Positions 17,424-59,248 of a stretch of 64,000 bases of DNA are shown here, in pieces. A program made the translations under genes and the position numbers. Under the pieces are notes generated by a model. It was not told the origin of the DNA. It ran no database searches and saw only the letters and a program-made list of their open reading frames with translations. Source of the DNA: Lachnospiraceae bacterium (GTDB lineage: Bacteria; Bacillota; Clostridia; Lachnospirales; Lachnospiraceae); NCBI GenBank assembly GCA_017557525.1, contig JAFYYN010000013.1:4788-68787 (forward strand), in the 5' to 3' direction. Each line of letters opens with the position of its first letter. Position 1 is the stretch's first letter.

Positions 17424-20400
17424 ATGGAAGAAAAAAGATTGACAAAAAAACACGAATGGCGCGAGCTCTTCACTTCTAAGACAATAAAAGAAGCAGAAGA
17501 GCTGTTTAACTATGGCAATGTATCCCAGTTTGCATGTGATCAGCTGCGGGCAGAGGCAGTGGTTAAGGAAGGTCGTTCACTTTTAAGAGTTCAGATAAAA
17601 CAGGCTCCTTATGCGTATAGCGCAGGCTGGAATGCTAAATATTTTAACTGCTCGTGCAGCTCAGGGCTATACTACAGGATGACGAAAACGACTACCTGCA
17701 AGCATGTAGCAGCTACACTGATGTATTGGGAGAATAAGAAAGGTCCCTGGATATTTACCGAAAATGACCAGGAATACAATTTCCGTATTAAATGCGAAGC
17801 TGAGGAAGCAGAAAAAGAGAGATTAAGGAAAATAAAAGAGGATCTCGAAAAACAGACGCTTGGCGTTAAAAAATTCCTTGATGAGAGAACAGGGAAACCC
17901 GGTAATACTTTTTTTGATATAAAGCTTGCGGTACTGCCTTTTGATACAAATATGTACGAAGTAAACGGGGCAGACAAGATACTTGAAGATAAGAATTCTA
18001 TTTTAATGGATGATCCGGCTTTAAGGTTTGGACCTACCGGAAAGCGTGTGCTTTGTGCAGAAGCGTATATTAAAGACCCATATAACGACTGCTCAAGTAA
18101 AGTAGAAATGATTTTTAGCAGGACAGGGATAGAAGAATGCTGGTGTAACTGCCGCAGATATTATTATGGGGTTTTTAACCGTACAGAATCATTATGCAGG
18201 CATAAGCTTGCGCTTATCAAAAAGGTATATGACTATGTAGAAAAAAATGACCCCGGTGATGCAACTGACCTGGCAGCATCGGAGTTCTTTTCCGCAATGG
18301 ATCTTTTCGGACAGAATAATATCGGAGAAGAAAAAGAGCAGATAAGAAAGGAAGAGAGCATAGTTATTAGTCCTCTGCTTACTATAGATAATGGTTCGGT
18401 TGCCCTCTCATTTAAAGTAGGTCTTAACGGGCAGAAACAGTTCCAATTAAAGAAAATCGAGCAGTTTTCGGCGGCAGTACAGGCAGAAGAAACTTTTGAA
18501 TTAGGTAAGTCTTCCGTACTTGATTTCTCGAAACAGGATTTTACCGAGAGCAGCAAACCATGGCTTAATTTCATTCATCAAAAAGTAAGTGATACCGAAA
18601 AGATCAATAACAGGCTCGGCTCAAGGAGCAGCTGGTATTATTATACTCCGAGCATAAAAACACAGAACAAGGATGAACTGTACGGGGCAACACTTGACAG
18701 GTTTTATGACATAGCTGAAGGTACGGACTGCGAATGTGCAAGAAAGAATGCCCCTAAACCGGGAGAGCGGAGAAAACCGGGCCGTAGAACTGCATCCGGT
18801 GAAGTGTTAGAGCCAAAGGAATATGTAAAATCAGGCTCCATGATCCATATAGGCCATCATAACATGAAGGTAAGCATTGCCACCGAACCTATAAAGTCAG
18901 CTAACGGTGGTTTTCTCGGCATATCCGTAAAAGGAAAAATGCCGATCATCAGGTCGGGTAGTGTGGACGGATATATCATCGGGGATGATTATATAAGCAG
19001 GATATCAAAGGACGAGCAGGCTGCACTTATCCCGTTTATGAAAGCATCTGACAAGGACGGCAACATTTCATTTAACATTGGAAAGGATATGCTTTCTGAG
19101 TTTTATTACCGCGTGGTTCCAGTCATTTCGGAACAGCCGTACGTTGAGTTTATTGACGGATGTGCTGATATGGCAGCGGAACTGATGCCTCCTGAGCCTC
19201 AGTTTACCTTTATATTCGACCAGACTGAGAATTTCTTTGTTTGCAGGGAAAAAGTAAAGTATGAAGAAGATGAAATAACGCTCCCCAGGACTGAAAAGTC
19301 ATTAGGGCGTTATGACGAGGCACAGGAAAAAAGAGTAACTGAGGCTGTAAAGGAATTCTTCCCGTTTTATGATGATAAATCCGGACGTTTTCTGGTTAAG
19401 GCAGACGAAGACACATTGTTTAAACTTCTTAATTCGGGCGTAAGCAAGCTTTCCCAGTACGGGCACGTATTTGGCACGGATGCATTTAAGATCAACAGGA
19501 TAAAGCCAATACCTCAGGTAAGCGTCGGAGTGTCTGTAGAGAGTGGGATAATGGATATCTCCGTTACTTCGAAGGACGCTAGTCCGGAAGAGCTGCTCGC
19601 TATACTCGAAAGCTACAGGTTAAAGAAGAGATATTACAGGCTTAAGTCCGGAGAATATGTCGACCTGTCACCTGATGAGCAGTTAAATTCACTAACAGAA
19701 GTTGCTGACGGGATGAATATTTCCCTTGAAACCATGCTTAAGGAAGGCGTAAAGGTACCTGCTTACAGGGCGCTGTATTTAAATAAGCTGCTTGAAGAGA
19801 GGGAAGCGCTTTTGAGCAACAGGGACAAAACCTACAGAGCGCTCATAAAGAACTTCCAGACCATAAAGGACGCGGATTACGAGGAGCCTGAAGGCTTTAA
19901 GGATGTATTAAGGCCTTATCAGACATATGGATTTAAATGGCTAAAGACCCTGTCGGCAGCAGGCTTTGGAGGAATACTTGCTGACGAGATGGGACTTGGA
20001 AAAACCCTGCAGGCTATCTCTCTTATGGAATCTTTAAAGGATGACGGGGATACCGGAACAGATCTTGTAGTCTGCCCGGCCTCTCTGGTATATAACTGGC
20101 AGGAGGAGATAAAGAGATTTGCTCCCAAGTTAAGATCGTCGGTTATTTCCGGTACTGCAGCTGAAAGAAAGAAGGAACTGGGTAAGATTTCAGGGAAAAA
20201 GTCCAAGGACACACCTGATATCTGCATAACCAGCTATGACAGCCTGCGTAAGGATATCGCTCTATATGAAAAAATAAAGTTTAATGTCCTGATACTTGAC
20301 GAGGCACAGTATATTAAAAACCAGAAAGCCGGAATGACGAAGGCGGTTAAGGTGCTTAACGGGAACCACCGCTTTGCCATGACAGGAACGCCTATAGAAA

Positions 20401-21305
20401 ACAGGCTCGCGGAGCTCTGGAGCATATTTGATTTCCTGATGCCGGGCTTCCTTTATGCCTATAAGGATTTTGCGTCAAGATATGAAACGCCGATCGCAAA
20501 GGGAAAGGATCAGGTTGCGGCTGAAAGCCTGAAGAGTATGGTAAGACCATTCATCCTCAGGAGGCTTAAATCAGAGGTACTTAAGGATCTGCCGGAGAAA
20601 TTAGAGGAAGTACGCTATGTAAGATTTGAGGAAGAGCAGCAGAAGGTTTATGACGGACAGGTTGTAAAACTGAAGAAGATAATTGAGAGCTCTTCGGGTA
20701 ATAATGACGACAAGATAAGGATACTTGCGGAACTTACAAAGCTCAGGCAGATATGCTGCGATCCGTCATTATTATTTGAGAATTATGACGGCGAGAGCGC
20801 GAAACGCAAGGGATGTCTGGACTTAATAAACAGCGCAATTTCCGGCGGTCACAGAATGCTTGTATTCTCGCAGTTTACATCCATGCTTGAGCTGCTGGAG
20901 AAGGATCTTAATGAGAATGAGATAAAATACTATAAGATCACGGGAGCTACGCCAAAGGAACAGAGGATCCGCATGGTCCATGAGTTTAATGACGGCGATG
21001 TGCCTGTTTTCCTTATATCCCTTAAGGCGGGCGGCACCGGACTTAACCTGACCGGAGCGGATGTCGTTATACATTATGACCCGTGGTGGAACCTGGCTGC
21101 CCAGAACCAGGCAACCGACAGAGCGCATCGTATCGGCCAGACAAACAAGGTTACCGTATATAAGATGATAATGAAGGACACCATAGAGGAAAAAATACTT
21201 GGCCTGCAGGAAGCTAAGAAAGATCTGGCAGATGCCATCTTAGAGGGCGAGAGCAAGTCGTTGTTTGCACTGTCAGGCGAGGAACTGATGAGGCTGTTGG
21301 ATTAA
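17424..21305 (+). CDS. SNF2-family helicase with two N-terminal SWIM zinc fingers
   Basis: SWIM-like CSCSSGLYYRMTKTTTCKHVAATL and CWCNCRRYYYGVFNRTESLCRHKLALI. SNF2 motifs ILADEMGLGKTLQAI, LILDEAQYIKN, MTGTPIENRL and HYDPWWNLAAQNQATDRAHRIGQ. Confidence 0.9.
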   Translation: MEEKRLTKKHEWRELFTSKTIKEAEELFNYGNVSQFACDQLRAEAVVKEGRSLLRVQIKQAPYAYSAGWNAKYFNCSCSSGLYYRMTKTTTCKHVAATLMYWENKKGPWIFTENDQEYNFRIKCEAEEAEKERLRKIKEDLEKQTLGVKKFLDERTGKPGNTFFDIKLAVLPFDTNMYEVNGADKILEDKNSILMDDPALRFGPTGKRVLCAEAYIKDPYNDCSSKVEMIFSRTGIEECWCNCRRYYYGVFNRTESLCRHKLALIKKVYDYVEKNDPGDATDLAASEFFSAMDLFGQNNIGEEKEQIRKEESIVISPLLTIDNGSVALSFKVGLNGQKQFQLKKIEQFSAAVQAEETFELGKSSVLDFSKQDFTESSKPWLNFIHQKVSDTEKINNRLGSRSSWYYYTPSIKTQNKDELYGATLDRFYDIAEGTDCECARKNAPKPGERRKPGRRTASGEVLEPKEYVKSGSMIHIGHHNMKVSIATEPIKSANGGFLGISVKGKMPIIRSGSVDGYIIGDDYISRISKDEQAALIPFMKASDKDGNISFNIGKDMLSEFYYRVVPVISEQPYVEFIDGCADMAAELMPPEPQFTFIFDQTENFFVCREKVKYEEDEITLPRTEKSLGRYDEAQEKRVTEAVKEFFPFYDDKSGRFLVKADEDTLFKLLNSGVSKLSQYGHVFGTDAFKINRIKPIPQVSVGVSVESGIMDISVTSKDASPEELLAILESYRLKKRYYRLKSGEYVDLSPDEQLNSLTEVADGMNISLETMLKEGVKVPAYRALYLNKLLEEREALLSNRDKTYRALIKNFQTIKDADYEEPEGFKDVLRPYQTYGFKWLKTLSAAGFGGILADEMGLGKTLQAISLMESLKDDGDTGTDLVVCPASLVYNWQEEIKRFAPKLRSSVISGTAAERKKELGKISGKKSKDTPDICITSYDSLRKDIALYEKIKFNVLILDEAQYIKNQKAGMTKAVKVLNGNHRFAMTGTPIENRLAELWSIFDFLMPGFLYAYKDFASRYETPIAKGKDQVAAESLKSMVRPFILRRLKSEVLKDLPEKLEEVRYVRFEEEQQKVYDGQVVKLKKIIESSSGNNDDKIRILAELTKLRQICCDPSLLFENYDGESAKRKGCLDLINSAISGGHRMLVFSQFTSMLELLEKDLNENEIKYYKITGATPKEQRIRMVHEFNDGDVPVFLISLKAGGTGLNLTGADVVIHYDPWWNLAAQNQATDRAHRIGQTNKVTVYKMIMKDTIEEKILGLQEAKKDLADAILEGESKSLFALSGEELMRLLD

Positions 21306-25310: not shown

Positions 25311-25339
25311 TTGCTTTTTATTTCGAAAAGGTGTATAAT
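25311..25339 (+). promoter_or_regulatory. sigma-A type promoter of the atp operon
   Basis: TTGCTT, 17-nt spacer, TATAAT. Confidence 0.55.
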
Positions 25340-25363: not shown

Positions 25364-26263
25364 ATGAAAGGCATGGTAATAGATATGAAAAAGAAGATAT
25401 CTAAACGCAGGGCGGTCTTTATAGTGGTCTGGCTGCTGCTGATTTTTTTCCTGCTTGGTGCTATACTTATATTGAAGTCGCCACCTAATGAGACGGAGAG
25501 TATCAAGGAGGTTATGAAGGACGGCGTCCTGCATGACAGAAATAAGATAAGCCTGTTTGGAATAATAGATGTGAACCCGGCTCTTATCTCAGCGTATGTC
25601 GTAACTGCTGTACTGCTTGTGGTGGCGGCGCTGATCAGGATATTTGCCATACCAAAGTTTAAGTATGTACCGGGCAAGTTCCAGATCGTGATAGAAAAGC
25701 TGGTTGAGTTCTTTAATGATATGGCGCATGCCAACAGCCCTCATAAGACAGGATTTATCTCGGCTTATATTTTTAGCGCGGGAGTGTACATTTTCTTTAG
25801 TACCTTGTTTGAGCTGCTGGGAGTACAGGCGGTGACCACCGAAGGGCATTCAATAGCCCTGCCGGCTCCGATAGCGGACATAAATGCCGCGATTGCCATG
25901 GGCTTTATGACTTACACGATAATTCTGCTCGGCGGTATCATCTGTAACGGCATAAATGGCGGTCTTAAGGTACTAAAGGACTTTTCACTGCCGATATCCA
26001 TGAGCTTCCGACTGTTCGGCGCGCTGCTTAGCGGACTGCTGGTTACAGAGCTTGTTTACTACTATATTTCATTGAGCTTTGTACTGCCGGTAGTAGTAGG
26101 CATTTTGTTTACCACGCTGCATGCGCTGATACAGACTTACGTTTTGGCAACACTTGCATCCGTATTTTACGGTGAGGCCGTGGAGCCAAAGAAACCAAAG
26201 GAACCTAAGAGATCCGGGAAGTCAAAGCAGCCTGAAGCACCTGAGGAAAGCACGGCTGCGTGA
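25364..26263 (+). CDS. atpB: F-type ATP synthase Fo subunit a
   Basis: Conserved Arg helix SMSFRLFGALLSGLLV. The start is uncertain (ATG 25364, 25373 or 25385), and the ORF-track GTG 25331 overlaps the predicted promoter. Lys/Pro/Glu-rich C-terminal tail. Confidence 0.85.
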   Translation: MKGMVIDMKKKISKRRAVFIVVWLLLIFFLLGAILILKSPPNETESIKEVMKDGVLHDRNKISLFGIIDVNPALISAYVVTAVLLVVAALIRIFAIPKFKYVPGKFQIVIEKLVEFFNDMAHANSPHKTGFISAYIFSAGVYIFFSTLFELLGVQAVTTEGHSIALPAPIADINAAIAMGFMTYTIILLGGIICNGINGGLKVLKDFSLPISMSFRLFGALLSGLLVTELVYYYISLSFVLPVVVGILFTTLHALIQTYVLATLASVFYGEAVEPKKPKEPKRSGKSKQPEAPEESTAA

Positions 26264-26345: not shown

Positions 26346-26702
26346 ATGAGAAACAGAAGATTATATTCAGGAATACTTGCTTTTGCATTTATTATGCTTT
26401 TTTCACTGATGCTGGTTTTTAGCGGAAATACTGAGGTTCACGCTGCAGGTGAAGAAGTGGCTGAGGCAGCTGTCGACAGTACCGGCTCAAAGGCTATCGC
26501 AGCAGGCATCGTTGTCGGCCTTGCTGCAGCTGCAGGTGCTATCGGTATGGGTATTGCAGTAGCTAAGAGTGCTGAGAGTATGGCACGCCAGCCCGAGATC
26601 GCAGGTAAGATCAATTCTACCATGATGCTTGGTATGGTTTTCATTGAGACCGCTATCATTTACGCGCTTATCGTTGCAATCCTGATTATATTTGTACTGT
26701 AA
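26346..26702 (+). CDS. atpE: F-type ATP synthase Fo subunit c with an N-terminal signal-peptide-like extension
   Basis: Helical hairpin with ARQPE loop and carboxylate helix MLGMVFIETAIIYAL. Strong AAGGAGAG RBS before ATG 26346. An alternative GTG at 26457 would give a canonical 81-aa protein. Confidence 0.85.
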   Translation: MRNRRLYSGILAFAFIMLFSLMLVFSGNTEVHAAGEEVAEAAVDSTGSKAIAAGIVVGLAAAAGAIGMGIAVAKSAESMARQPEIAGKINSTMMLGMVFIETAIIYALIVAILIIFVL

Positions 26703-26756: not shown

Positions 26757-26807
26757 GAATACCAGATGGTATTTAGCAATGTAGTTATAGATAAGAGGAG
26801 AAAGAAA

Positions 26808-27302
26808 ATGCCGCTTAATATAGATGTTGTGCAGATACTTCTTCATATGCTTAACTTTGTGATACTGGCAGGGGGACTGACTCTCCTTTTATTTAAGCCG
26901 GTCAAAAAGTTCCTGGATGAAAGACAGAAGTATTTTGCCGATAAGGAAAAGAAACTGGCTGAAGGTCTTGAAAACAATGAGAATCTCAGGGCAGAGTACG
27001 AGAAAAAGCTTTCTACGGTGGATTCCGAAATCGAAGAGATGAAGCTCAATGCTAAGAACGAGACCGCTAAAGAGGCCAAGGAATATCTGAATAATGCACA
27101 GGAAAAGGCAGCAGCCATTATCTCTGAAGCGGAGTCACAGGCTGAGGACCGCAAGGAGCATATCCTTGATTCAGCTCAGACGGAGATTGGCGAGCTGGTG
27201 GTAGAGGCTACCCAGAAGCTGCTTGAGACTAATGCTAATCCTGACAGGACACATGAGCTGTACGATGAGTTTATCAAGAGTATGGTAAGGGATGTTCAGT
27301 GA
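26808..27302 (+). CDS. atpF: F-type ATP synthase Fo subunit b
   Basis: N-terminal TM ([20 protein letters not shown]) followed by a long charged coiled-coil region. AAGAGGAG RBS. Confidence 0.85.
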
Positions 27303-27315
27303 AGGGGTACAGGTT

Positions 27316-29214
27316 ATGCAGGAAGAAAATTTTGAAAATTTACTGAAACTGGCGGAAGAGGCTGAGGAAGCCAGACGCCTTAAGGAAAAAGAAAATGCTG
27401 TTTCTGCGGAAGGAACAGAGAATGGTGATGCAGGTCTTTCCGAAGGTCAGACATTGGAGCCTGAAGAGGATCAGCCCTTAAAGGTTGAGATACGATGCGT
27501 TGTCCCTCCGGATGAAGAGCAGCAGAAGGCTATTGCTACCATCATGCAGGAAAAGTATGGGGCTGAAAAGGTAGAGATAGTCATAAAGAATGATCCGGGC
27601 GCTGCCGACGGTTTCAACATTTTTGTCGGTGATGATAACTACGACTGGACAACTTTAGGCAGGATCAGGCAGCTCAGACGTTCAATACAGAAGCTTCCTA
27701 AAGAGAAAAAGATCAACAATATCATTTCGCTTATAAAGGATGATATCAAGGACTTTAAGCTGAACCTTGGTTTCCAGCAGGTGGGAGAGGTCCTGACTGT
27801 CGGTGACGGCATAGCAGTTATTGTCGGCTTGAAGGAAGTTGAATACGGCGAGATAGTCCTGTTTGAATGCGGCGTTAAGGGCATGGTACAGGATATAAGA
27901 ACAAACGGTACTACAGGTGTAGTGTTGTTTGGCGATGCCTCCGAGATCACTGAAGGGCAGAGGGTTGTGCGTACGGGGCGTACTGCAGGTATCCCTATCA
28001 GCAATAAGATACTTGGGCGTATGATAGATCCTCTTGGAAAGCCTATTGACGGCGGTCCCGATATCGGTGCCAAGAAATACTACCCGATTGAAAGACCGGC
28101 ACCGGGTATCATAGACAGAAAGTCGGTTTGCTCTCCTTTGGAGACCGGTATACTTGCTATTGATTCAATGTTCCCGATAGGCCGCGGACAGCGTGAGCTT
28201 ATTATCGGTGACCGTCAGACAGGTAAGACTTCGGTGGCTGTGGACACTATCCTTAACCAAAAGGGCAAAGATGTGGTATGTGTCTATGTTGCCATCAGCC
28301 AGAAGGCTAGCTCTGTGGCTAAGGTTGTAAACACTTTAAAGAAAAACGGGGCGATGGACTATACCGTTATTGTTTCTTCGCCTGCAAGTGATTCTGCTTC
28401 GCTACAGTATATCGCTCCTTATGCGGGATGTGCAGTTGCCGAGTATTTCATGTATCACGGCAGGGATACCCTGATAATATATGATGATCTTTCTAAGCAT
28501 GCGGTTGCTTACAGAACCATAAGCCTTTTGCTTGAAAGGGCTCCGGGACGTGAGGCTTACCCCGGCGATGTATTTTATCTCCATTCGAGGCTGCTTGAGC
28601 GTTCGGCTCAGCTTTCCGACGAGATGGGCGGAGGCAGCATGACTGCGCTTCCTATCGTAGAGACACAAGCGGGCGATGTTTCGGCTTATATCCCGACCAA
28701 CATCATTTCTATTACGGATGGTCAGATATTCTTAGACAGCGAGCTGTTTTATTCGGGTCAGCGGCCTGCGGTTAATGTAGGTCTTTCGGTTTCCCGTGTA
28801 GGTTCCGCGGCTCAGACTAATGTTATGAAGAAGTCCGTAGGTACCTTGAGGCTTGATCTCGCGCAGTACCGTGAGATGCAGGTATTCTCTCAGTTTGGAT
28901 CCGACCTTGATGACCAGACGGTACTACAGTTAAAATACGGCGCGGGGCTTATGCAGCTTTTAAAACAGCCTAATCAGTCACCGCTTACCTTGCATGAGCA
29001 GGTAATACTGCTTATGTGCGCAAGGGAAAAGCTTTTCCTTGATACGCCTGCCAAGGACATACCAAAGGTGGCAAGAGATCTGCTTGACTGGTTCGCAAAG
29101 GAGAATGCTACACTTTGCCTGTCAATCGAACATAAAAAGACCTACTCGGATGAGCTGCAGAAGAAGGTGCTGAAGGCAGCGAAGAATTTCTTTGTACAAG
29201 TTAAGAAAAACTAG
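27316..29214 (+). CDS. atpA: F1 ATP synthase alpha subunit fused at its N-terminus to a delta/OSCP C-terminal-domain-like segment
   Basis: Alpha motifs GDRQTGKTS and the beta-barrel start [16 protein letters not shown]. Residues encoded by 27481-27696 resemble the delta C-terminal domain. There is no separate atpH ORF between atpF and this gene. Confidence 0.85.
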
Positions 29215-29299: not shown

Positions 29300-31650
<2,351 letters not shown>

Positions 31651-31707: not shown

Positions 31708-32142
31708 ATGGCAGAGGTGTTTCATCTGGAAATATTATCACCGGAAAATCCGTTTTATAACGGGGACTGTGTGTCGCTTGTACTTCCGATAAGTGACGGT
31801 ATGATCGGTATCATGGCGCATCATCCGGCTATGACTGCGGTTATCGGTGACGGTCTGGTTAAGTTTACCCTGCCGGACGGTGAGGTAAGGCAGTGCATGG
31901 TTTCTAAAGGGATGTTCGATATTTCCAAGAATGACGCAAGGCTTTTGTGTGATATGGCAGCCGCTCCTGAGGACTGGGCAGCAGAAGCCCAAAGGCGAAA
32001 AGAAGAAGAGGCTCGCATCGAGGAAGAGGAAAAGAAGGCTAGGATGGACTTTATGAAGACCCAGCTTTCAATTGCGAGGACCATAAATGCTTTAAAGATA
32101 AAGAACCGTAATGCCGCACATGCAGAGAGGCCGCTATCGTGA
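31708..32142 (+). CDS. atpC: F1 ATP synthase epsilon subunit
   Basis: 144 aa. N-terminal beta-sandwich-like LEILSPENPFYNGDCVSLVLPISDGMIGIMAHH followed by a helical charged C-terminus. Position after atpD. Confidence 0.85.
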   Translation: MAEVFHLEILSPENPFYNGDCVSLVLPISDGMIGIMAHHPAMTAVIGDGLVKFTLPDGEVRQCMVSKGMFDISKNDARLLCDMAAAPEDWAAEAQRRKEEEARIEEEEKKARMDFMKTQLSIARTINALKIKNRNAAHAERPLS

Positions 32143-52761: not shown

Positions 52762-53046
52762 ATGGATACGATAATAACGATTTTATTTATTTTCCTCCTG
52801 GTATGCGCGGTAGCGGCAAGCATAGCGAAGGATTCGCTGGTCTGCATAGTGCTTTTCAGTGCTTACAGCCTGGTGATGGCTATCATTTGGATAGTCATGG
52901 AGTCCCCTGATCTTGCCATCACAGAGGCAGCAGTAGGAGCGGGCGTCACCGGCATACTGTTCTATGCCACACTAAAGAGGATAGACCAGATAGATATGCA
53001 GGCCGGGACCAAGGAAGTAACAACAACCAGGAAACTACGAAAGTAA
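52762..53046 (+). CDS. Mrp-like complex small subunit (DUF4040 / MbhD / MrpA C-terminal-like)
   Basis: 94 aa with three TM helices. SPDLAITEAAVGAGVTGILF is typical of this family. Confidence 0.75.
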   Translation: MDTIITILFIFLLVCAVAASIAKDSLVCIVLFSAYSLVMAIIWIVMESPDLAITEAAVGAGVTGILFYATLKRIDQIDMQAGTKEVTTTRKLRK

Positions 53047-53064
53047 CTGACTGATGAGGTGTTT
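53047..53064 (+). repeat. tail of the CTGACTGATGAGGTG family
   Basis: CTGACTGATGAGGTGTTT is identical over 18 nt to 57661-57678 and starts right after the TAA stop. Confidence 0.8.
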
Positions 53065-53077
53065 GCAAGGTACTACA

Positions 53078-53968
53078 ATGAATAAGAATAAAAAAATTAA
53101 CTCAGTTAAGCCACGGAGTAAAAATACTTCCGGCGGAAATTCCCCGATCCCTTCCGGAGTGGCAAAAAAACTGCGCTCCGTCTATCGTGTGGCTGCAGCA
53201 GTCATGATAGTACTCATGTTTGTACTGTTGGCTACGGCAATGCTCGGGATGCCCGAGATAGGGGACAAAAATAATCCAGACAACAACGAAGTTGCCCGAA
53301 GATATATTGAAAACGGACTGGACGAAACCGGTGCTGTCAATATTGTTTCGGGCATGATTCTTGATTACAGGGCTTTTGATACCTTTGGCGAGTCCTGTGT
53401 TCTTTTTGTTGCAACCATCTGCGTGACCATCATGCTGCGGATCGACGGCAGGGGCGGAGAAGGCGATGACGAGGAAGCGGAGAGTGATAAAAAGGCATTC
53501 GGTATCAGGCAGTCAGCCTTCGCAAAGCTTGACTCGCGAAACTTTGAGCCGGAAAATGATACCATACTCAAAAAAAGTTCGCTGATCGTATTTCCGATAA
53601 TAATGGTATTTGGAGTATACGTAATACTAAACGGCCACATCTCACCCGGCGGAGGCTTCTCCGGCGGAGCAATACTCGGAGCAGGCTTTGTACTGTTCCT
53701 TTCAGCCTTTGGTTTTAATAAGACTGAGCGTTTCATGAATGCAAATACCGTAAGGATCATAACACTGATCGCGCTGCTTGTTTACTGCCTTTCAAAGTGT
53801 TATTCATTCTTTACCGGTGCAAACCACTTAGAGTCAGGTATACCGCTCGGCACACCCGGAGCCATCCTTTCAAGCGGCCTTATCCTGGTACTAAATATCT
53901 GCGTAGGCATGGTAGTAGCCTGCACAATGTATAGTTTCTATGCACTTGTAAGACGAGGAAGAATATAA
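53078..53968 (+). CDS. Mrp-like complex subunit B (MnhB domain)
   Basis: GAVNIVSGMILDYRAFDTFGESCVLF is the MnhB signature. Basic hydrophilic N-terminus. Confidence 0.8.
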   Translation: MNKNKKINSVKPRSKNTSGGNSPIPSGVAKKLRSVYRVAAAVMIVLMFVLLATAMLGMPEIGDKNNPDNNEVARRYIENGLDETGAVNIVSGMILDYRAFDTFGESCVLFVATICVTIMLRIDGRGGEGDDEEAESDKKAFGIRQSAFAKLDSRNFEPENDTILKKSSLIVFPIIMVFGVYVILNGHISPGGGFSGGAILGAGFVLFLSAFGFNKTERFMNANTVRIITLIALLVYCLSKCYSFFTGANHLESGIPLGTPGAILSSGLILVLNICVGMVVACTMYSFYALVRRGRI

Positions 53969-53969
53969 A

Positions 53970-54353
53970 ATGTGGAATTTAATACGTGAGCACCTGAACG
54001 ATTTGGTAGCGGTAGCCCTGTTTGTCATAGGCTTTGGCGACCTGCTCTTTCAGAAAAACATGATAAAAAAGATAATAGGGCTGAATATCATGGATACGGC
54101 AGTATATCTGCTCCTGGCATCCCAGGGCTACATTGAGGGCAGGAAAGCCCCGATAGTGGTTGACGGAGTAAGGGACGCATCGGCATATATCAACCCGATA
54201 CCGAGCGGACTTGTCCTTACCGGCATCGTAGTGTCTGTGAGCGTTACAGCTCTTTTACTGTCGCTCACTATCAGGATGTATAAAAAATATCACTCGCTGG
54301 ATCTTGATTACTGCCTGATGATGGCTAGACGTGAGGATCACAGCGCCGGGTGA
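53970..54353 (+). CDS. Mrp-like complex subunit C (NuoK-like)
   Basis: 127 aa with three TM helices. IIGLNIMDTAVYLLLAS is typical of MnhC/NuoK. Confidence 0.8.
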   Translation: MWNLIREHLNDLVAVALFVIGFGDLLFQKNMIKKIIGLNIMDTAVYLLLASQGYIEGRKAPIVVDGVRDASAYINPIPSGLVLTGIVVSVSVTALLLSLTIRMYKKYHSLDLDYCLMMARREDHSAG

Positions 54354-54425
54354 GGCGCTTGTCAGCTGCACTGACAGTTTCCATTAACGATAATAAGAAA
54401 TATGAGAAAAGAGGTTTGTAAATAA

Positions 54426-56090
54426 ATGGAATTCGTTAGGAACTTCCCGTTTTTCTCGATAATGCTCTGCATGTTCTGTGCCATCATCTGTTCGGTACTG
54501 CGGCGCAAGGCAGCTCAGTATTTTACAATGATCGTATTGCTAGCAGTGATGGCTTTGTCGGGGGTGCTCCTTTATTTTACATATAAAACCGGTGGAAGCT
54601 TTGTTTATTATATGGGCCATTTCCCGGCACCATGGGGAAATGAGATAAGAGGAGGATGCTTAGAGGCAATATTTGCCTACTTTATAAGCACGGTAGCATT
54701 CCTTTCGGTACTTGCGGGAGGCAAGGCCATAGAATATGACATAGAGGACAAAAAGGAAAATCTCTTCTTCATCCTCGTGTGCCTTATGACAAGCTCTCTG
54801 CTCGCCATGTGCTATACAAACGACTTGTTTACCGGATACGTATTCATAGAAATAAATACCATAGCCGGCTGCGGACTCATTATGGTAAGACAGATAGGAA
54901 AATCCATAGTCACTGCTATAAGGTATATGGTTATCAGTATGCTTGGTTCCGGTCTTTTCCTGATCGGTGTAACCCTGCTGTACACACTTACCGGACACCT
55001 TTTGATGTCTAATATACAGGAATCTGTAGCAGCTCTTAGCGGGAACGGGGACTACGGGATGCAGCTTACCATCGTTATAGGACTGATGACTGTGGGCATT
55101 GCCATAAAAGCGGGACTTTTCCCATTCCACCTCTGGATACCGGACGCATACGGACAGTCAAATGTAGTATCAAGCTCACTGCTTTCGAGCACAGTTTCAA
55201 AAGGCTATATTTTCCTGCTTATAAAGGTTTATTTTAGGACCATAGGTCTTGACGCGATAGAAAACAGCGGCGTGCTCTATGTATGTTTCTCGCTGGGCAT
55301 AGTTGCCATGATCTTAGGATCCGTGCTTGCGCTGCATGAAAAGAGCTTCCGGCGTATGATCGCCTTTTCATCCATAGCCCAGATAGGCTACATATTCATG
55401 GGCATTGGCATAGGCACGAAGGAAGCGGTTACTGCGGCAATATTCCATATATTTGCGCACGGACTTACCAAATCACTGCTGTTCCTTTCCTCATCGGAGT
55501 TTACCGAGGGCTCGCATTCAAAATCCATAGACCAGTTAAAGGGCTTAGGGCATAAATACAGGTACTCGGCACTTTGCTACAGTATCGGAGCCTTCTCAAT
55601 AGTCGGCTTTCCATTGCTTGGAGGTTTTATATCAAAGCTGCTTCTGGGCGGAGCTGCCATCGGTCACGGACCAATGCAGTGGATAGCGCTGCTTGCGCTC
55701 GCGATCAGTACGATATTAAACGCGGTTTATTTCTTAAGGACAGTTGTGTATCTGTACATACCGAAGGAGCATATTGCTGAGACTGATGATACAGCAGAGT
55801 TAAAGGATTTAGCAATCGGAAATAACATATCCGGGAGAAATATTAAAAATACCTTCAAGAAACATATAGCCGAAAATAAAGATGCTGATACGTTAGATAT
55901 TGAAACATCGAACAATAAAAATATACATGCAGGTCACGATAAAGAGGAAATGCTCAATTTACTCCCCGGCATGCACTGCCCGAGATTTGTTATCGGCATA
56001 ACAGCACTCGTGATTTTAAATTTTGTTCTAGGACTATGCTCAGGCCCGATAATTGATATAATAAAACAGGGACTTGATGTATTTGACTGA
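54426..56090 (+). CDS. antiporter-like subunit (MrpD/NuoN/NuoM family), copy 1
   Basis: Proton-conducting membrane transporter pattern (GLFPFHLWIPDAYG, SSIAQIGYIF, HGLTKSLLFL). Hydrophilic insert before the last TM. Confidence 0.85.
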   Translation: MEFVRNFPFFSIMLCMFCAIICSVLRRKAAQYFTMIVLLAVMALSGVLLYFTYKTGGSFVYYMGHFPAPWGNEIRGGCLEAIFAYFISTVAFLSVLAGGKAIEYDIEDKKENLFFILVCLMTSSLLAMCYTNDLFTGYVFIEINTIAGCGLIMVRQIGKSIVTAIRYMVISMLGSGLFLIGVTLLYTLTGHLLMSNIQESVAALSGNGDYGMQLTIVIGLMTVGIAIKAGLFPFHLWIPDAYGQSNVVSSSLLSSTVSKGYIFLLIKVYFRTIGLDAIENSGVLYVCFSLGIVAMILGSVLALHEKSFRRMIAFSSIAQIGYIFMGIGIGTKEAVTAAIFHIFAHGLTKSLLFLSSSEFTEGSHSKSIDQLKGLGHKYRYSALCYSIGAFSIVGFPLLGGFISKLLLGGAAIGHGPMQWIALLALAISTILNAVYFLRTVVYLYIPKEHIAETDDTAELKDLAIGNNISGRNIKNTFKKHIAENKDADTLDIETSNNKNIHAGHDKEEMLNLLPGMHCPRFVIGITALVILNFVLGLCSGPIIDIIKQGLDVFD

Positions 56091-56096
56091 TGAGGG
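56085..56096 (+). repeat. tail fragment of the CTGACTGATGAGGTG family overlapping a stop codon
   Basis: In GACTGATGAGGG, the TGA at 56088-56090 is the stop of the preceding gene. Confidence 0.5.
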
Positions 56097-56128
56097 ATTA
56101 CATTTCATAGATTTTTTAGGAGGCATAT

Positions 56129-57598
56129 ATGGCTGTGCTCTTAATCTCCATCCTTTTGCCGATACTGGGTGGAGTAATATTACTAACAGTAAAAAAATTT
56201 GAAGATAGAAAGCTGAGAAACCTGTTTACAGGTTTCTGGCTCATTTTGTCCGCTGCGGTAACCCTGGCTACCGTATTCTGCGCGGACGGAACACTGACAC
56301 TGTTCAGGCTTACCGAAAACGCGGTGGTTTCACTAAAAGCAGACGGACTTACCAGATTCTTCTCGGTACTAATGAGCCTTATGTGGACTCTGGTAGGTTT
56401 CTACGCCTTTGACTATATGAAGCACGAAGAGCATGAGAGAAGATTCTTCGGCTTCTACATGATAGTTATGGGAGTCCTTACAGGCATATATATGTCTGCA
56501 AATCTGCTGACTCTCTATCTTTTCTATGAGCTGATGACACTTACATCACTTCCGCTTGTATTACATTCACTTACAAAGGAAGCGATATCGGCAGGAAAGA
56601 AATACCTGTTTTATTCAGTCGGAGGTGCGTTCCTTTCACTGATAGCGATCTTTTACATATACACAAACTGCAATACCGCCGATTTCACAGCAGGAGGTTT
56701 TATCGGAGAGGTGGCAGAGGGCGACAAGGGAATGCTGCTTGTATTTATATTCCTTGCAATCATCGGCTTTGGCTGTAAAGCAGGTCTTTTCCCATTACAG
56801 GACTGGCTGCCTACCGCACATCCCGTAGCACCTTCACCTGCATCGGCTGTTCTTTCGGGTCTTATTACAAAATCCGGCGTATTTGTACTGATCAGACTTA
56901 TATATTTCAGCATCGGAGCTGATTTTATCCGTGGCACATGGGTACAGTACAGCTGGATGATACTTGCACTTCTTACAGTATTCCTCGGCTCCATGATGGC
57001 ATATACCGAAAAGGTGATGAAAAAGCGTTTTGCTTACTCTACAGTAAGTCAGGTTTCATACGTACTTTTCGGACTTTCACTGCTTAACAGCACAGGATTT
57101 ACCGGAGCCTTAATGCATGTTGTATTCCACTCTGTGATAAAGGACGGCTTATTCCTTGTAGCAGGAGCTATAATAGTACATACGGGCATAAAGAACGTGG
57201 ACGGACTACGCGGGATAGCAAAGAAAATGCCTACAGTCATCTGGTGCTATACATTCTTTGCGCTAGCGCTCGTAGGCATACCGCCGGCAAGCGGTTTTGT
57301 GAGCAAGTGGTATCTGTGCCTGGGAGCATTGGAGGGAGATATAGGAGCGCTTAGATTCATAGGACCCGCCGTGCTGCTTATAAGCGCGCTGCTTACTGCA
57401 GGATACCTGTTACCAATCACAATACACGGTTTCTTCCCGGGGAATGATTTTGATTATTCTACCTGTAAGAAATGCAAGGTATCGCCGCTGATGATAGTAC
57501 CGCTTATCATTCTGGCTGTAGCAGCAGTAGGCTTCGGACTTTTCCCGGATATTGTAACGAATGGAATTGAAGCAATAAAGACCGGTCTATTTTTATAA
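56129..57598 (+). CDS. antiporter-like subunit (MrpD/NuoM family), copy 2
   Basis: GLFPLQDWLPTAHPVAPSPASAVLSG, STVSQVSYVLFGL and HSVIKDGLFL. Confidence 0.85.
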   Translation: MAVLLISILLPILGGVILLTVKKFEDRKLRNLFTGFWLILSAAVTLATVFCADGTLTLFRLTENAVVSLKADGLTRFFSVLMSLMWTLVGFYAFDYMKHEEHERRFFGFYMIVMGVLTGIYMSANLLTLYLFYELMTLTSLPLVLHSLTKEAISAGKKYLFYSVGGAFLSLIAIFYIYTNCNTADFTAGGFIGEVAEGDKGMLLVFIFLAIIGFGCKAGLFPLQDWLPTAHPVAPSPASAVLSGLITKSGVFVLIRLIYFSIGADFIRGTWVQYSWMILALLTVFLGSMMAYTEKVMKKRFAYSTVSQVSYVLFGLSLLNSTGFTGALMHVVFHSVIKDGLFLVAGAIIVHTGIKNVDGLRGIAKKMPTVIWCYTFFALALVGIPPASGFVSKWYLCLGALEGDIGALRFIGPAVLLISALLTAGYLLPITIHGFFPGNDFDYSTCKKCKVSPLMIVPLIILAVAAVGFGLFPDIVTNGIEAIKTGLFL

Positions 57599-57619
57599 TG
57601 ATTGATTATTACGTGTCTC

Positions 57620-57680
57620 TATAAAGGCTTCCCCTTCGAAGGGAAGCTGTCAGCAAAAGGCTGACTGATGAGGTGTTTAT
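57620..57680 (+). repeat. intergenic structured repeat (CTGACTGATGAGGTG family), full short form
   Basis: TATAAAGGCTTCCCCTTCGAAGGGAAGC, then T-GTCAGC-aaaag-GCTGAC, then TGATGAGGTGTTTAT. Confidence 0.9.
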
Positions 57681-57691
57681 AGGAGGCAACT

Positions 57692-59248
57692 GTGGATATT
57701 AACAGTTTCATCCTGTTACCTGTCGTTATGCCAATATTATTTGGCATAATGCTACTTCTTTTCCCAATAAAGAATGACAGGACCAGGGATATAACAAATT
57801 TCATATTTGTCCTGATAAATACGGCGTTTTCCTTCATAGCCATGATATACTGGTATGATGAGAGCATATCGGTAATAAAGCTGTTTGGGGACTTTGGCTT
57901 TGTATTCAGGACGGACAGGGCGGCATGCATATTCGGAACCATAGTCAGCGGACTCTGGCCATTTGCAAGCCTTTATGCCTATGGGTATATGAAGCATCAT
58001 GAAAGGAAAAACTCTTTCTTTGCATTCTTTACCATGACATACGGAGTAGTAATGGGTATAGCGTTTTCCGCAAACCTGCTCACGATGTATGTGCTTTACG
58101 AAATGTTGACGCTGGTTACATTCCCCTTAGTGCTGCATCCTATGACAAAGGCAGCGGTAAAGGCAGCTAAGACCTACCTCGTCTACTCACTTGGAGGAGC
58201 GGCATTCGGACTTATAGGGCTTATCTTTATGATGAGCATAGGAAGCATAGATTTTACATACGGAGGCAGTATAGGAAACAATACGGGTAATACATTCCTG
58301 TTACCTGCATTTGTACTTGCCTTTTGCGGTTTCAGCGTAAAAGCAGCCATGGCACCGTTCTCCGGATGGCTCATTAAGGCAGCAGTAGCTCCCACGCCGG
58401 TTACGGCCCTGCTTCATGCCGTAGCGGTAGTAAACGCCGGTTCATTCGCATGTGTGAGGCTCATCTATTATATCTACGGAACAGAGATTATTTACGGTAC
58501 TTGGGCTCAGTATTTGGTCATGGCACTTACCATCATAACCATAGTATTCGGCTCATCATTTGCGGTAAAGGAGAGGCATTTCAAGAGGAGACTTGCGTAC
58601 TCAACCATCAGTAACCTTTCATATATCCTTTTTGCGGCAACCATCATGACGCCTCTTGGCCTAACAGCCGCATTCGCGCACATGCTCATGCATTCGCTCA
58701 CCAAGATATGTTCCTTCTTCTGTTGCGGCATAGTCATGGAGCAGACCGGAAAGGAATACATATACGAGCTTGATGGGATGGGTAGGAAAATGAGGATATC
58801 ATTTGCGTGCTTTACGGTCGCTTCGCTGTCTCTGATAGGAATACCGCTTTTCTGCGGCTTCCAGAGCAAATGGAGGATAGGTGTTGCAGCAGTATCTGAC
58901 GCCCAGCCCTTGACCATAGCAGGACTTGTAGCCCTGCTCTTTTCGGCCCTGCTTACCGCGATATATATGCTGAGCATAGTGATGAGGGCATATTTCCCGG
59001 AAACTGTTGCTGCTATAGGACAGGCTTCAGCAGAAAGCACAAGTGATAAGAAAAATCCAAATGTTTCAAAGAAAAATAAAAACACAAAGAACAACAGTGC
59101 AGGTACAGATAATGTAAAAACTGATAATAATACAGATTATAAGGAGCACTGCGTACAGATGCTCCTGCCAATAATATGCTTTGCTATAGGGATCATAATC
59201 CTTGGCGTGTTCTGGCAGCCGGTACTGGATTTTATATCTTTTATGTAA
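57692..59248 (+). CDS. antiporter-like subunit (MrpA/MrpD/NuoL family), copy 3
   Basis: GTG start 5-6 nt after AGGAGG. AMAPFSGWLIKAAVAPTPVTALLHA, STISNLSYILF and HSLTKICSFF. Lys/Asn-rich insert before the last TM. Confidence 0.85.
   Translation: MDINSFILLPVVMPILFGIMLLLFPIKNDRTRDITNFIFVLINTAFSFIAMIYWYDESISVIKLFGDFGFVFRTDRAACIFGTIVSGLWPFASLYAYGYMKHHERKNSFFAFFTMTYGVVMGIAFSANLLTMYVLYEMLTLVTFPLVLHPMTKAAVKAAKTYLVYSLGGAAFGLIGLIFMMSIGSIDFTYGGSIGNNTGNTFLLPAFVLAFCGFSVKAAMAPFSGWLIKAAVAPTPVTALLHAVAVVNAGSFACVRLIYYIYGTEIIYGTWAQYLVMALTIITIVFGSSFAVKERHFKRRLAYSTISNLSYILFAATIMTPLGLTAAFAHMLMHSLTKICSFFCCGIVMEQTGKEYIYELDGMGRKMRISFACFTVASLSLIGIPLFCGFQSKWRIGVAAVSDAQPLTIAGLVALLFSALLTAIYMLSIVMRAYFPETVAAIGQASAESTSDKKNPNVSKKNKNTKNNSAGTDNVKTDNNTDYKEHCVQMLLPIICFAIGIIILGVFWQPVLDFISFM

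Follow-up and report, generated by a model that had tools for sequence, protein, structure and literature searches.

The fused gene and its product

We analysed a stretch of 64,000 nucleotides (the window) from the genome of a Lachnospiraceae bacterium of the rumen (contig JAFYYN010000013.1, assembly GCA_017557525.1), whose F-type ATP synthase (atp) operon encodes an alpha subunit that carries the C-terminal domain of the delta/OSCP subunit (hereafter delta-C) at its N-terminus. The gene is one unbroken open reading frame (ORF) on the plus strand, running from 27292 or 27316 to 29214. We prefer ATG 27316 as the start, because an AAGGGG Shine-Dalgarno sequence lies 8 nt 5' of this codon and because close homologues open with M-[SI]-E-E-x-F-E-N-L-L. 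Public gene callers use ATG 27292, with a product of 640 aa; this form is an exact member of a 133-member cluster at 90% identity, and bears the NCBI name "F0F1 ATP synthase subunit alpha [Lachnospiraceae bacterium]". Translated from ATG 27316, the protein has 632 aa and consists of an acidic tail, delta-C, a linker and a complete alpha subunit:

27316..27477, plus strand: N-terminal tail (residues 1-54), a predicted helix at residues 3-30 followed by a disordered acidic stretch
27478..27693, plus strand: delta/OSCP C-terminal domain (residues 55-126), from Pfam OSCP, a clostridial delta profile, predicted topology and Foldseek
27694..27711, plus strand: linker LPKEKK (residues ~127-132), from the last delta-C helix to the alpha N-terminal helix
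27712..29214, plus strand: complete F1 alpha (residues ~133-632 plus the stop codon), from TIGR00962, Pfam and PDB alpha chains

The extension on alpha thus comprises about 130 residues, about 54 of them acidic tail, and the length of the linker is put at 5-8 residues. An earlier note on this DNA, made from the letters alone, had described the same three-part layout, which stands, with slightly different dimensions (it gave about 135 residues, and placed delta-C at 27481-27696).

Profile searches identified both halves of the protein. Pfam OSCP (PF00213) matches residues 49-123 to profile positions 97-171 of 172 only, with 35.8 bits against a cutoff of 22.3, and the N-terminal 145 aa alone give 38.9 bits (E 1.2e-9). 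A hidden Markov model (HMM) built from ten clostridial delta subunits aligns to the fused ORF over HMM positions 85-165 (73.9 bits, E 1.4e-20), and the full-length delta model TIGR01145 scores 33.6 bits, under its cutoff of 57.5. The alpha part is normal and complete: the NCBIfam atpA model TIGR00962 covers residues 132-626 with model positions 3-498 of 503 (718.3 bits, cutoff 484.45), the Pfam domains ATP-synt_ab_N, ATP-synt_ab and ATP-synt_ab_C lie at residues 154-221, 278-493 and 500-625, and the closest PDB alpha chains match it at E about 1e-180.

Structural analysis rests on an AlphaFold2 model of the first 160 residues made with 90 aligned sequences; a full-length AlphaFold model was poor (predicted local distance difference test, pLDDT, 57.7) and was set aside. 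Residues 51-130 (pLDDT 80-88) are predicted to adopt the beta-alpha-beta-beta-beta-alpha topology of delta-C, with the alpha N-terminal helix directly after it. When the model was compared with the PDB by Foldseek, the top ~45 matches were almost all delta/OSCP chains of F-ATPases, including those of Pseudomonas aeruginosa, Bacillus PS3 and Escherichia coli, the mycobacterial b-delta, bovine OSCP, and 9JC1, the engineered PS3 fusion considered below. In solved F1Fo structures delta-C is the part of delta that binds the b2 stalk.

The other half of delta, the N-terminal helical bundle (delta-N), could not be detected. PF00213 profile positions 1-96, which describe it, have no match in the fusion protein, and a second HMM, built from the N-domains of the ten clostridial deltas alone, had no significant hit when all six frames of the window and of 82 related loci were searched, roughly 1 Mb altogether (best E 0.56). 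These loci were inspected over at most 16.5 kb each (flanks up to 8 kb); no atpH or other free delta gene was found in them, in the operon or in the window. We conclude that the extension is a genuine delta/OSCP C-terminal domain, and that delta-N forms no part of the protein and is encoded neither in the operon nor elsewhere in the 64-kb window.

The remaining genes of the operon are conventional in order, a-c-b-[deltaC-alpha]-gamma-beta-epsilon, as assigned by Pfam:

25385..26263, plus strand: atpB, Fo a subunit (PF00119, 64 bits); start uncertain, the ORF opening at 25331
26346..26702, plus strand: atpE, c subunit of 118 aa (PF00137 at residues 51-114), with a strong Shine-Dalgarno sequence before ATG 26346
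26808..27302, plus strand: atpF, b subunit of 164 aa from a Shine-Dalgarno-supported ATG; the ORF opens at 26766, and PF00430 covers residues 24-154 of the 178-aa ORF
29300..30181, plus strand: atpG, gamma (PF00231, 247 bits)
30199..31650, plus strand: atpD, beta (PF00006, PF02874, PF22919)
31708..32142, plus strand: atpC, epsilon (PF02823)

The stop codon of the b gene, at 27302, lies 13 nt ahead of the fusion start, which leaves no room for atpH. The b gene product is an ordinary PF00430 protein of 164-178 aa with no OSCP match and no delta-like part. Within the window we found no other homologue of alpha or beta, nor any V-type ATPase. The earlier note had asserted the delta-C on alpha, the gene order, the lack of space for atpH, the absence of delta-N and the normality of alpha, and all of these are borne out. 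Outcomes that it had named as fatal to its proposal did not occur: the OSCP match is significant, the ORF contains no stop or frameshift, and close relatives carry the same fusion instead of a normal delta.

Two of the Fo subunits have extended ends. The a subunit runs past its Pfam domain in a Lys/Pro/Glu-rich C-terminal tail of ~27 residues (26180-26263; EPKKPKEPKRSGKSKQPEAPEESTAA), and the c subunit begins with a signal-peptide-like extension (26346-26480; MRNRRLYSGILAFAFIMLFSLMLVFSGNTEVHA followed by AG) and an acidic linker before the usual hairpin. An N-terminal extension of ~45-50 aa is present in all c genes of the window-type fused clade (loci L001-L013 and others), and in other fused clades (L083-L087) the c subunits are normal, at 70-74 aa. 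In c helix 2 (26600-26702) the ion site reads ARQPE ... F-I-E-T-A-I-I-Y and is conserved in the clade; it has the Gln, the Glu, Thr at +1 and Tyr at +5, with Ala at +2, which we take to be a partial Na+-type signature. The corresponding site of the other fused clades is L-A-E-A-T-A-I-Y. Elsewhere in the window, a Mrp/Mbh-like membrane module (52762-59248, plus strand) encodes MbhD, an MbhE/MnhB fusion, a NuoK-like subunit and three consecutive Proton_antipo_M subunits; we saw no hydrogenase genes in the part that was examined, and the module is probably a cation/proton antiporter, with a bearing on the Na+/H+ economy of the cell. A 1293-aa bacterial SNF2-family helicase (17424-21305, plus strand; SNF2_assoc, SNF2-rel_dom, Helicase_C) is encoded upstream of a sugar ABC transporter, which in turn precedes the atp operon.

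Conservation of the fusion and other delta architectures in Clostridia

When one genome per GTDB species was scanned, a relative of the window fusion turned up in at least 103 species-representative genomes, and 80 of these genomes were retrieved for inspection. The carriers, mostly rumen and gut metagenome-assembled genomes (MAGs), belong to Lachnospiraceae, Oscillospiraceae/Ruminococcaceae, Acutalibacteraceae, Faecousia, Mageeibacillus, Shuttleworthella and Clostridium sp. CAG:138. Where a locus had enough intact DNA, tblastn almost always gave a single continuous high-scoring segment pair from about residue 50 to about residue 626; it was broken in noisy or gapped contigs (for example L001, L002 and L033). 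The order a-c-b-fusion-gamma-beta-epsilon is common to the inspected loci (about 80).

Within delta-C, 16 residues are invariant and make up a motif. In 66 of 66 fused ORFs the conserved Trp (W111) stands exactly 24 aa ahead of the motif of the alpha N-terminal helix, a fixed spacing that suggests a geometric requirement at the junction. Nonsynonymous divergence (dN) from the closest relatives is 0.05-0.08 in delta-C, 0.014-0.044 in alpha and 0.31-0.55 in the N-terminal tail; synonymous sites are saturated in this comparison, so that dN/dS values are rough. By these rates strong purifying selection acts on delta-C, which is almost as constrained as alpha, but not on the tail. The tail is lineage-specific and fast-evolving, ranging from 0 to about 60 aa among homologues. 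In the window it comprises a conserved segment predicted to be helical (residues 3-30, pLDDT 71-86) and then a variable, acidic, disordered stretch, and most other fused clades have fewer than 20 residues at this position.

The fusion is real, conserved and not an artefact, because it is found in frame in at least 103 species, with invariant spacing and with purifying selection on its delta part. Matches in the homologue listing appear to extend to no more than about 1.7 times the query length, so that short lengths there are those of fragments, not of genuinely short proteins. Production of an unfused alpha by internal initiation is unlikely, since no in-frame start codon (ATG, GTG or TTG) in the junction region is preceded by a ribosome-binding site, and homologues have no conserved Met at the delta/alpha junction.

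A search of representative sequences revealed three arrangements of delta in these bacteria: free delta of 167-180 aa, full delta (both domains) fused to alpha, and fusions of delta-C only. Many and varied full delta-alpha fusions occur in Lachnospiraceae, Eubacterium, Coprococcus and Butyrivibrio MAGs (P0046, P0198 and about 25 others; loci L084 and L085), and NCBI often labels them "ATP synthase F1 subunit delta, partial". Such fusions amount to three delta-N bundles per F1, which known structures cannot seat on the axis. A second clade of C-domain-only fusions (P0097 type), found in great abundance in Lachnospiraceae, shares the operon layout and is ~32% identical to the window protein in delta-C. 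Some C-domain-only fusions, whose reading frames begin directly at the stop codon of b, share 66-72% identity with a full fusion across delta-C and alpha, and in a neighbour-joining tree (a crude one, of 175 columns and without bootstrap support) C-domain-only fusions are scattered among full fusions. This high identity and scatter suggest that the fusion arose first and that delta-N was lost later, several times.

A different arrangement is found in Clostridium argentinense/faecium, where a free delta of 364 aa (P0074) has one N-domain and three tandem OSCP C-domains. This triple-C delta is encoded in a canonical a-c-b-delta-alpha-gamma-beta-epsilon operon (loci L088 and L089, 6001-7095), and occurs in 44 blocks of the contig collection, from which we read 23 carrying contigs. 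It may be another route to three stalk-binding delta-C heads per F1. Together with the fusions to alpha, it forms a set of convergent solutions that lend indirect support to selection on the number of heads.

Some individual entries stand apart from these arrangements. In P0095 (306 aa), a full delta-alpha fusion, the alpha N-terminal helix segment is duplicated in tandem (…ISDFELEAEDKQVG… then …INGFELVAEDKEIG…). The fused N-terminus runs on into an SRP54 GTPase domain in P0031 (453 aa; Pfam) and into pyruvate-kinase-like sequence in P0146 (348 aa; by eye); both are probably chimeric metagenome contigs.

Possible consequences for the peripheral stalk

A protein of the same design was recently built from Bacillus PS3 subunits by Ueno et al. 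(Nat Commun 2025, PMC12229609), who deleted delta-N (residues 2-104) and joined delta-C to the alpha N-terminus by a short linker. Cryo-electron microscopy of the engineered enzyme revealed a c10 ring with as many as three b2 stalks, every stalk accompanied by an a subunit of its own (PMC12229609). The stoichiometries of a and b were 2.2 and 1.8 times those of the wild type, the H+/ATP ratio was 5.8 versus 3.0, and the equilibrium proton-motive force was 68 versus 133 mV (PMC12229609). The authors concluded that delta-N caps the enzyme at one stalk by breaking threefold symmetry (PMC12229609).

We read the window operon as encoding an ATP synthase in which a delta-C fused in frame to the N-terminus of every alpha takes the place of free delta. 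By analogy with the engineered enzyme and with solved structures of F1Fo, each delta-C head would bind a b2 dimer at its C-terminal end, and the peptide link to the alpha N-terminal helix would substitute for the non-covalent grip of delta-N. With no delta-N on the pseudo-threefold axis and three identical docking sites, nothing would restrict the enzyme to a single stalk, and we expect two or three b2-a stator modules around one c-ring in a substantial fraction of the complexes. With additional a subunits the number of ions carried across per turn, the product of c and a subunits, would be multiplied, which would permit ATP synthesis at a low ion-motive force and would suit fermentative anaerobes of the rumen and gut. 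That delta-C acts as a functional covalent anchor of the stator is, on these comparisons, very probable. For the presence of more than one stalk per complex in vivo we hold only a slight preference.

Several points weigh against multiple stalks. The main alternative is a single-stalk enzyme, in which the fusion only replaces the grip of delta-N, and one delta-C head holds b2-a while the other two are idle. The operon carries a single a gene and a single b gene, in the usual order. The natural fusions are known as sequences, and it was in the engineered PS3 enzyme that multiple stalks were seen; that enzyme is heterogeneous (one to three stalks), sheds its stalks readily and pumps less and more slowly, so the natural one might have been selected for one stalk (PMC12229609). 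Robust assembly through the covalent tether could by itself be the advantage. Full delta-alpha fusions, which are common, retain delta-N, the presumed stalk-capping element, so that fusion by itself need not imply several stalks. The acidic tail, which the engineered protein lacks, might hinder access to delta-C. However, the engineered PS3 enzyme, made from the same operon with its a and b genes unchanged, had about two stalks on average (PMC12229609); no known factor would enforce a single stalk on three equivalent sites in the absence of delta-N; and the repeated loss of delta-N, together with the triple-C delta, suggests selection for several accessible heads. We regard the single-stalk enzyme as a serious alternative, though less likely than one with several stalks.

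It is very unlikely that the fused delta-C is accessory or vestigial and that the work is done by a product of genes elsewhere in the genome, either a normal free delta or another complete ATPase. The search for an unlinked atpH or a second ATPase covered 64 kb of this genome and at most 16.5 kb of each related one, and a previous survey listed delta-less clostridial units as additional to a complete F1Fo (PMC5709465), both of which leave some room for this explanation. Yet an accessory domain would hardly be nearly as constrained as alpha, with 16 invariant residues and a junction of invariant length; in about 80 loci the rest of the operon is complete and canonical; and neither a delta-N signal in ~1 Mb of related DNA nor a second alpha or beta in the window was found. 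Least credible of all is an origin of the fusion in a sequencing or assembly error or a missed stop that joins a short atpH to atpA, or a product that is split post-translationally or by internal initiation. Some database entries do look like free OSCP proteins of 133-137 aa (P0007 and P0013), but these proved to be frameshift artefacts: the alpha N-terminal helix is already inside them, and their source contigs are noisy and frameshift-ridden, with alpha itself split into pieces. The in-frame fusion recurs in independent assemblies, the junction lacks a supported start or a conserved Met, and a delta-C without delta-N would, once detached, lose its normal means of binding F1, a concern raised in PMC12229609.

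Taking the multi-stalk enzyme as our preferred reading, we tentatively extend it to a broader picture, which as a whole falls somewhat short of an even chance. In gut and rumen Clostridia, F-type ATP synthases whose single c-ring is served by two or three b2-a modules may be in wide use, with the ion/ATP ratio raised two- to threefold over its canonical value; these would have evolved from free delta through full delta-alpha fusions by repeated loss of delta-N, with the triple-C delta in parallel. The window enzyme would be one of them, possibly Na+-coupled, with its c subunit exported via the signal-peptide-like extension.

The ion-per-ATP ratio had been thought to be fixed by c-ring size alone; the engineered and Chloroflexus enzymes of 2025 showed that the number of a subunits counts too. 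If the multi-stalk reading is true, a large share of gut and rumen fermenters would have ATP synthases geared for a very low ion-motive force, and energy-yield estimates for these ecosystems would change. The hundreds of natural sequences offer evolution-tested templates for the engineering aim of Ueno et al., and display the evolutionary steps, fusion first and loss of delta-N after. For genome-scale models there is a practical point: delta looks missing in them because the fusions are annotated as "alpha" or "delta, partial".

Comparison with known systems

The design is not categorically new, since both an engineered form and a natural example were published in 2025; the breadth of distribution, the intermediates and the triple-C delta described here go well beyond these. 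The earlier note knew of no delta-alpha fusion, a statement overturned by the engineered and natural ones in PMC12229609. It had also counted three delta-C copies per F1, correctly, but called them an architectural oddity, whereas in the engineered enzyme three copies are what lets up to three b2-a modules bind (PMC12229609).

The closest relative in the PDB is the engineered PS3 protein. In a search of all PDB sequences, window residues 64-626 aligned in one stretch to residues 13-576 of 9JC1 chain I (584 bits), which is named "ATP synthase delta subunit, ATP synthase subunit alpha". Both proteins have the order delta-C (PS3 residues 105-178), short linker and alpha, both lack delta-N, and the delta-C fold and alpha N-terminal helix of the predicted window model superpose on 9JC1 over 109 columns. 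The engineered junction reads RRQL-IGGSGGSIRAEE-ISALIKQQI, and the natural junction differs from it by one residue in length, with a linker of the LPKEKK type in place of GGSGGS. In contrast to the engineered protein, the window protein is natural, is only ~25% identical in delta-C, and has the additional acidic N-terminal tail of ~54 aa; the window epsilon keeps its C-terminal part, and the window c subunit has an N-terminal extension. Stalk number and ion/ATP ratio were measured for the PS3 enzyme, whereas the window enzyme is known from its sequence.

Natural fusions were named in the same work, those of Acidaminococcus fermentans (UniProt D2RLW6) and the entries G4Q3K6 and A0A1I2C5T3 (PMC12229609, Discussion and Supplementary Fig. 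9). A literature search yielded no description of a natural delta-alpha fusion besides that paper, in which a multi-stalk enzyme is a prediction for the A. fermentans fusion. By its description the A. fermentans protein is like that of the window, with delta fused to alpha in the atp operon and delta-N missing, but the organism belongs to the Negativicutes, whereas the window is from Lachnospiraceae (Clostridia). Against the three accessions of PMC12229609 stand at least 103 species for one subtype here, plus the second abundant clade. In the survey mentioned above, delta-less clostridial transcription units were placed among partial units additional to a complete F1Fo, and the fusion went unrecognised (PMC5709465).

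Other departures from the canonical stalk resemble the window operon in part. The F1Fo of Chloroflexus aurantiacus is a natural two-stalk enzyme, alpha3 beta3 gamma epsilon delta2 a2 b4 c10 (PNAS 2025, PMC12002316; PDB 9ITJ/9ITK). In this enzyme, as proposed for the window, stalk number is set by what tops F1, and delta-C is the b-binding head; there, however, two free deltas dimerise via a shortened delta-N, whereas in the window the heads are covalently attached to alpha, and neither a free delta gene nor delta-N was found, so that a design of the Chloroflexus type does not apply. The mycobacterial b-delta fusion (PDB 7JG5, 7NKD) is likewise a gene fusion at the interface of stalk and F1 in which a covalent link replaces a non-covalent contact. 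Its partner is b, both delta domains are kept and there is one copy per complex, whereas the partner in the window is alpha; the window b subunit has PF00430 only and no OSCP match, and a fusion of the mycobacterial type was rejected. N-ATPases also have operons without a free delta gene, but there the genes are ordered beta-epsilon-(Q/R)-a-c-b-alpha-gamma, the b subunit is long and alpha carries no domain derived from delta (PMC2881411). The window operon has the canonical gene order and scores below the NCBIfam cutoffs for the alternate alpha (TIGR03324, 583.8 versus 750.5) and the alternate b (TIGR03321, 52.4 versus 224.7), and is not an N-ATPase.

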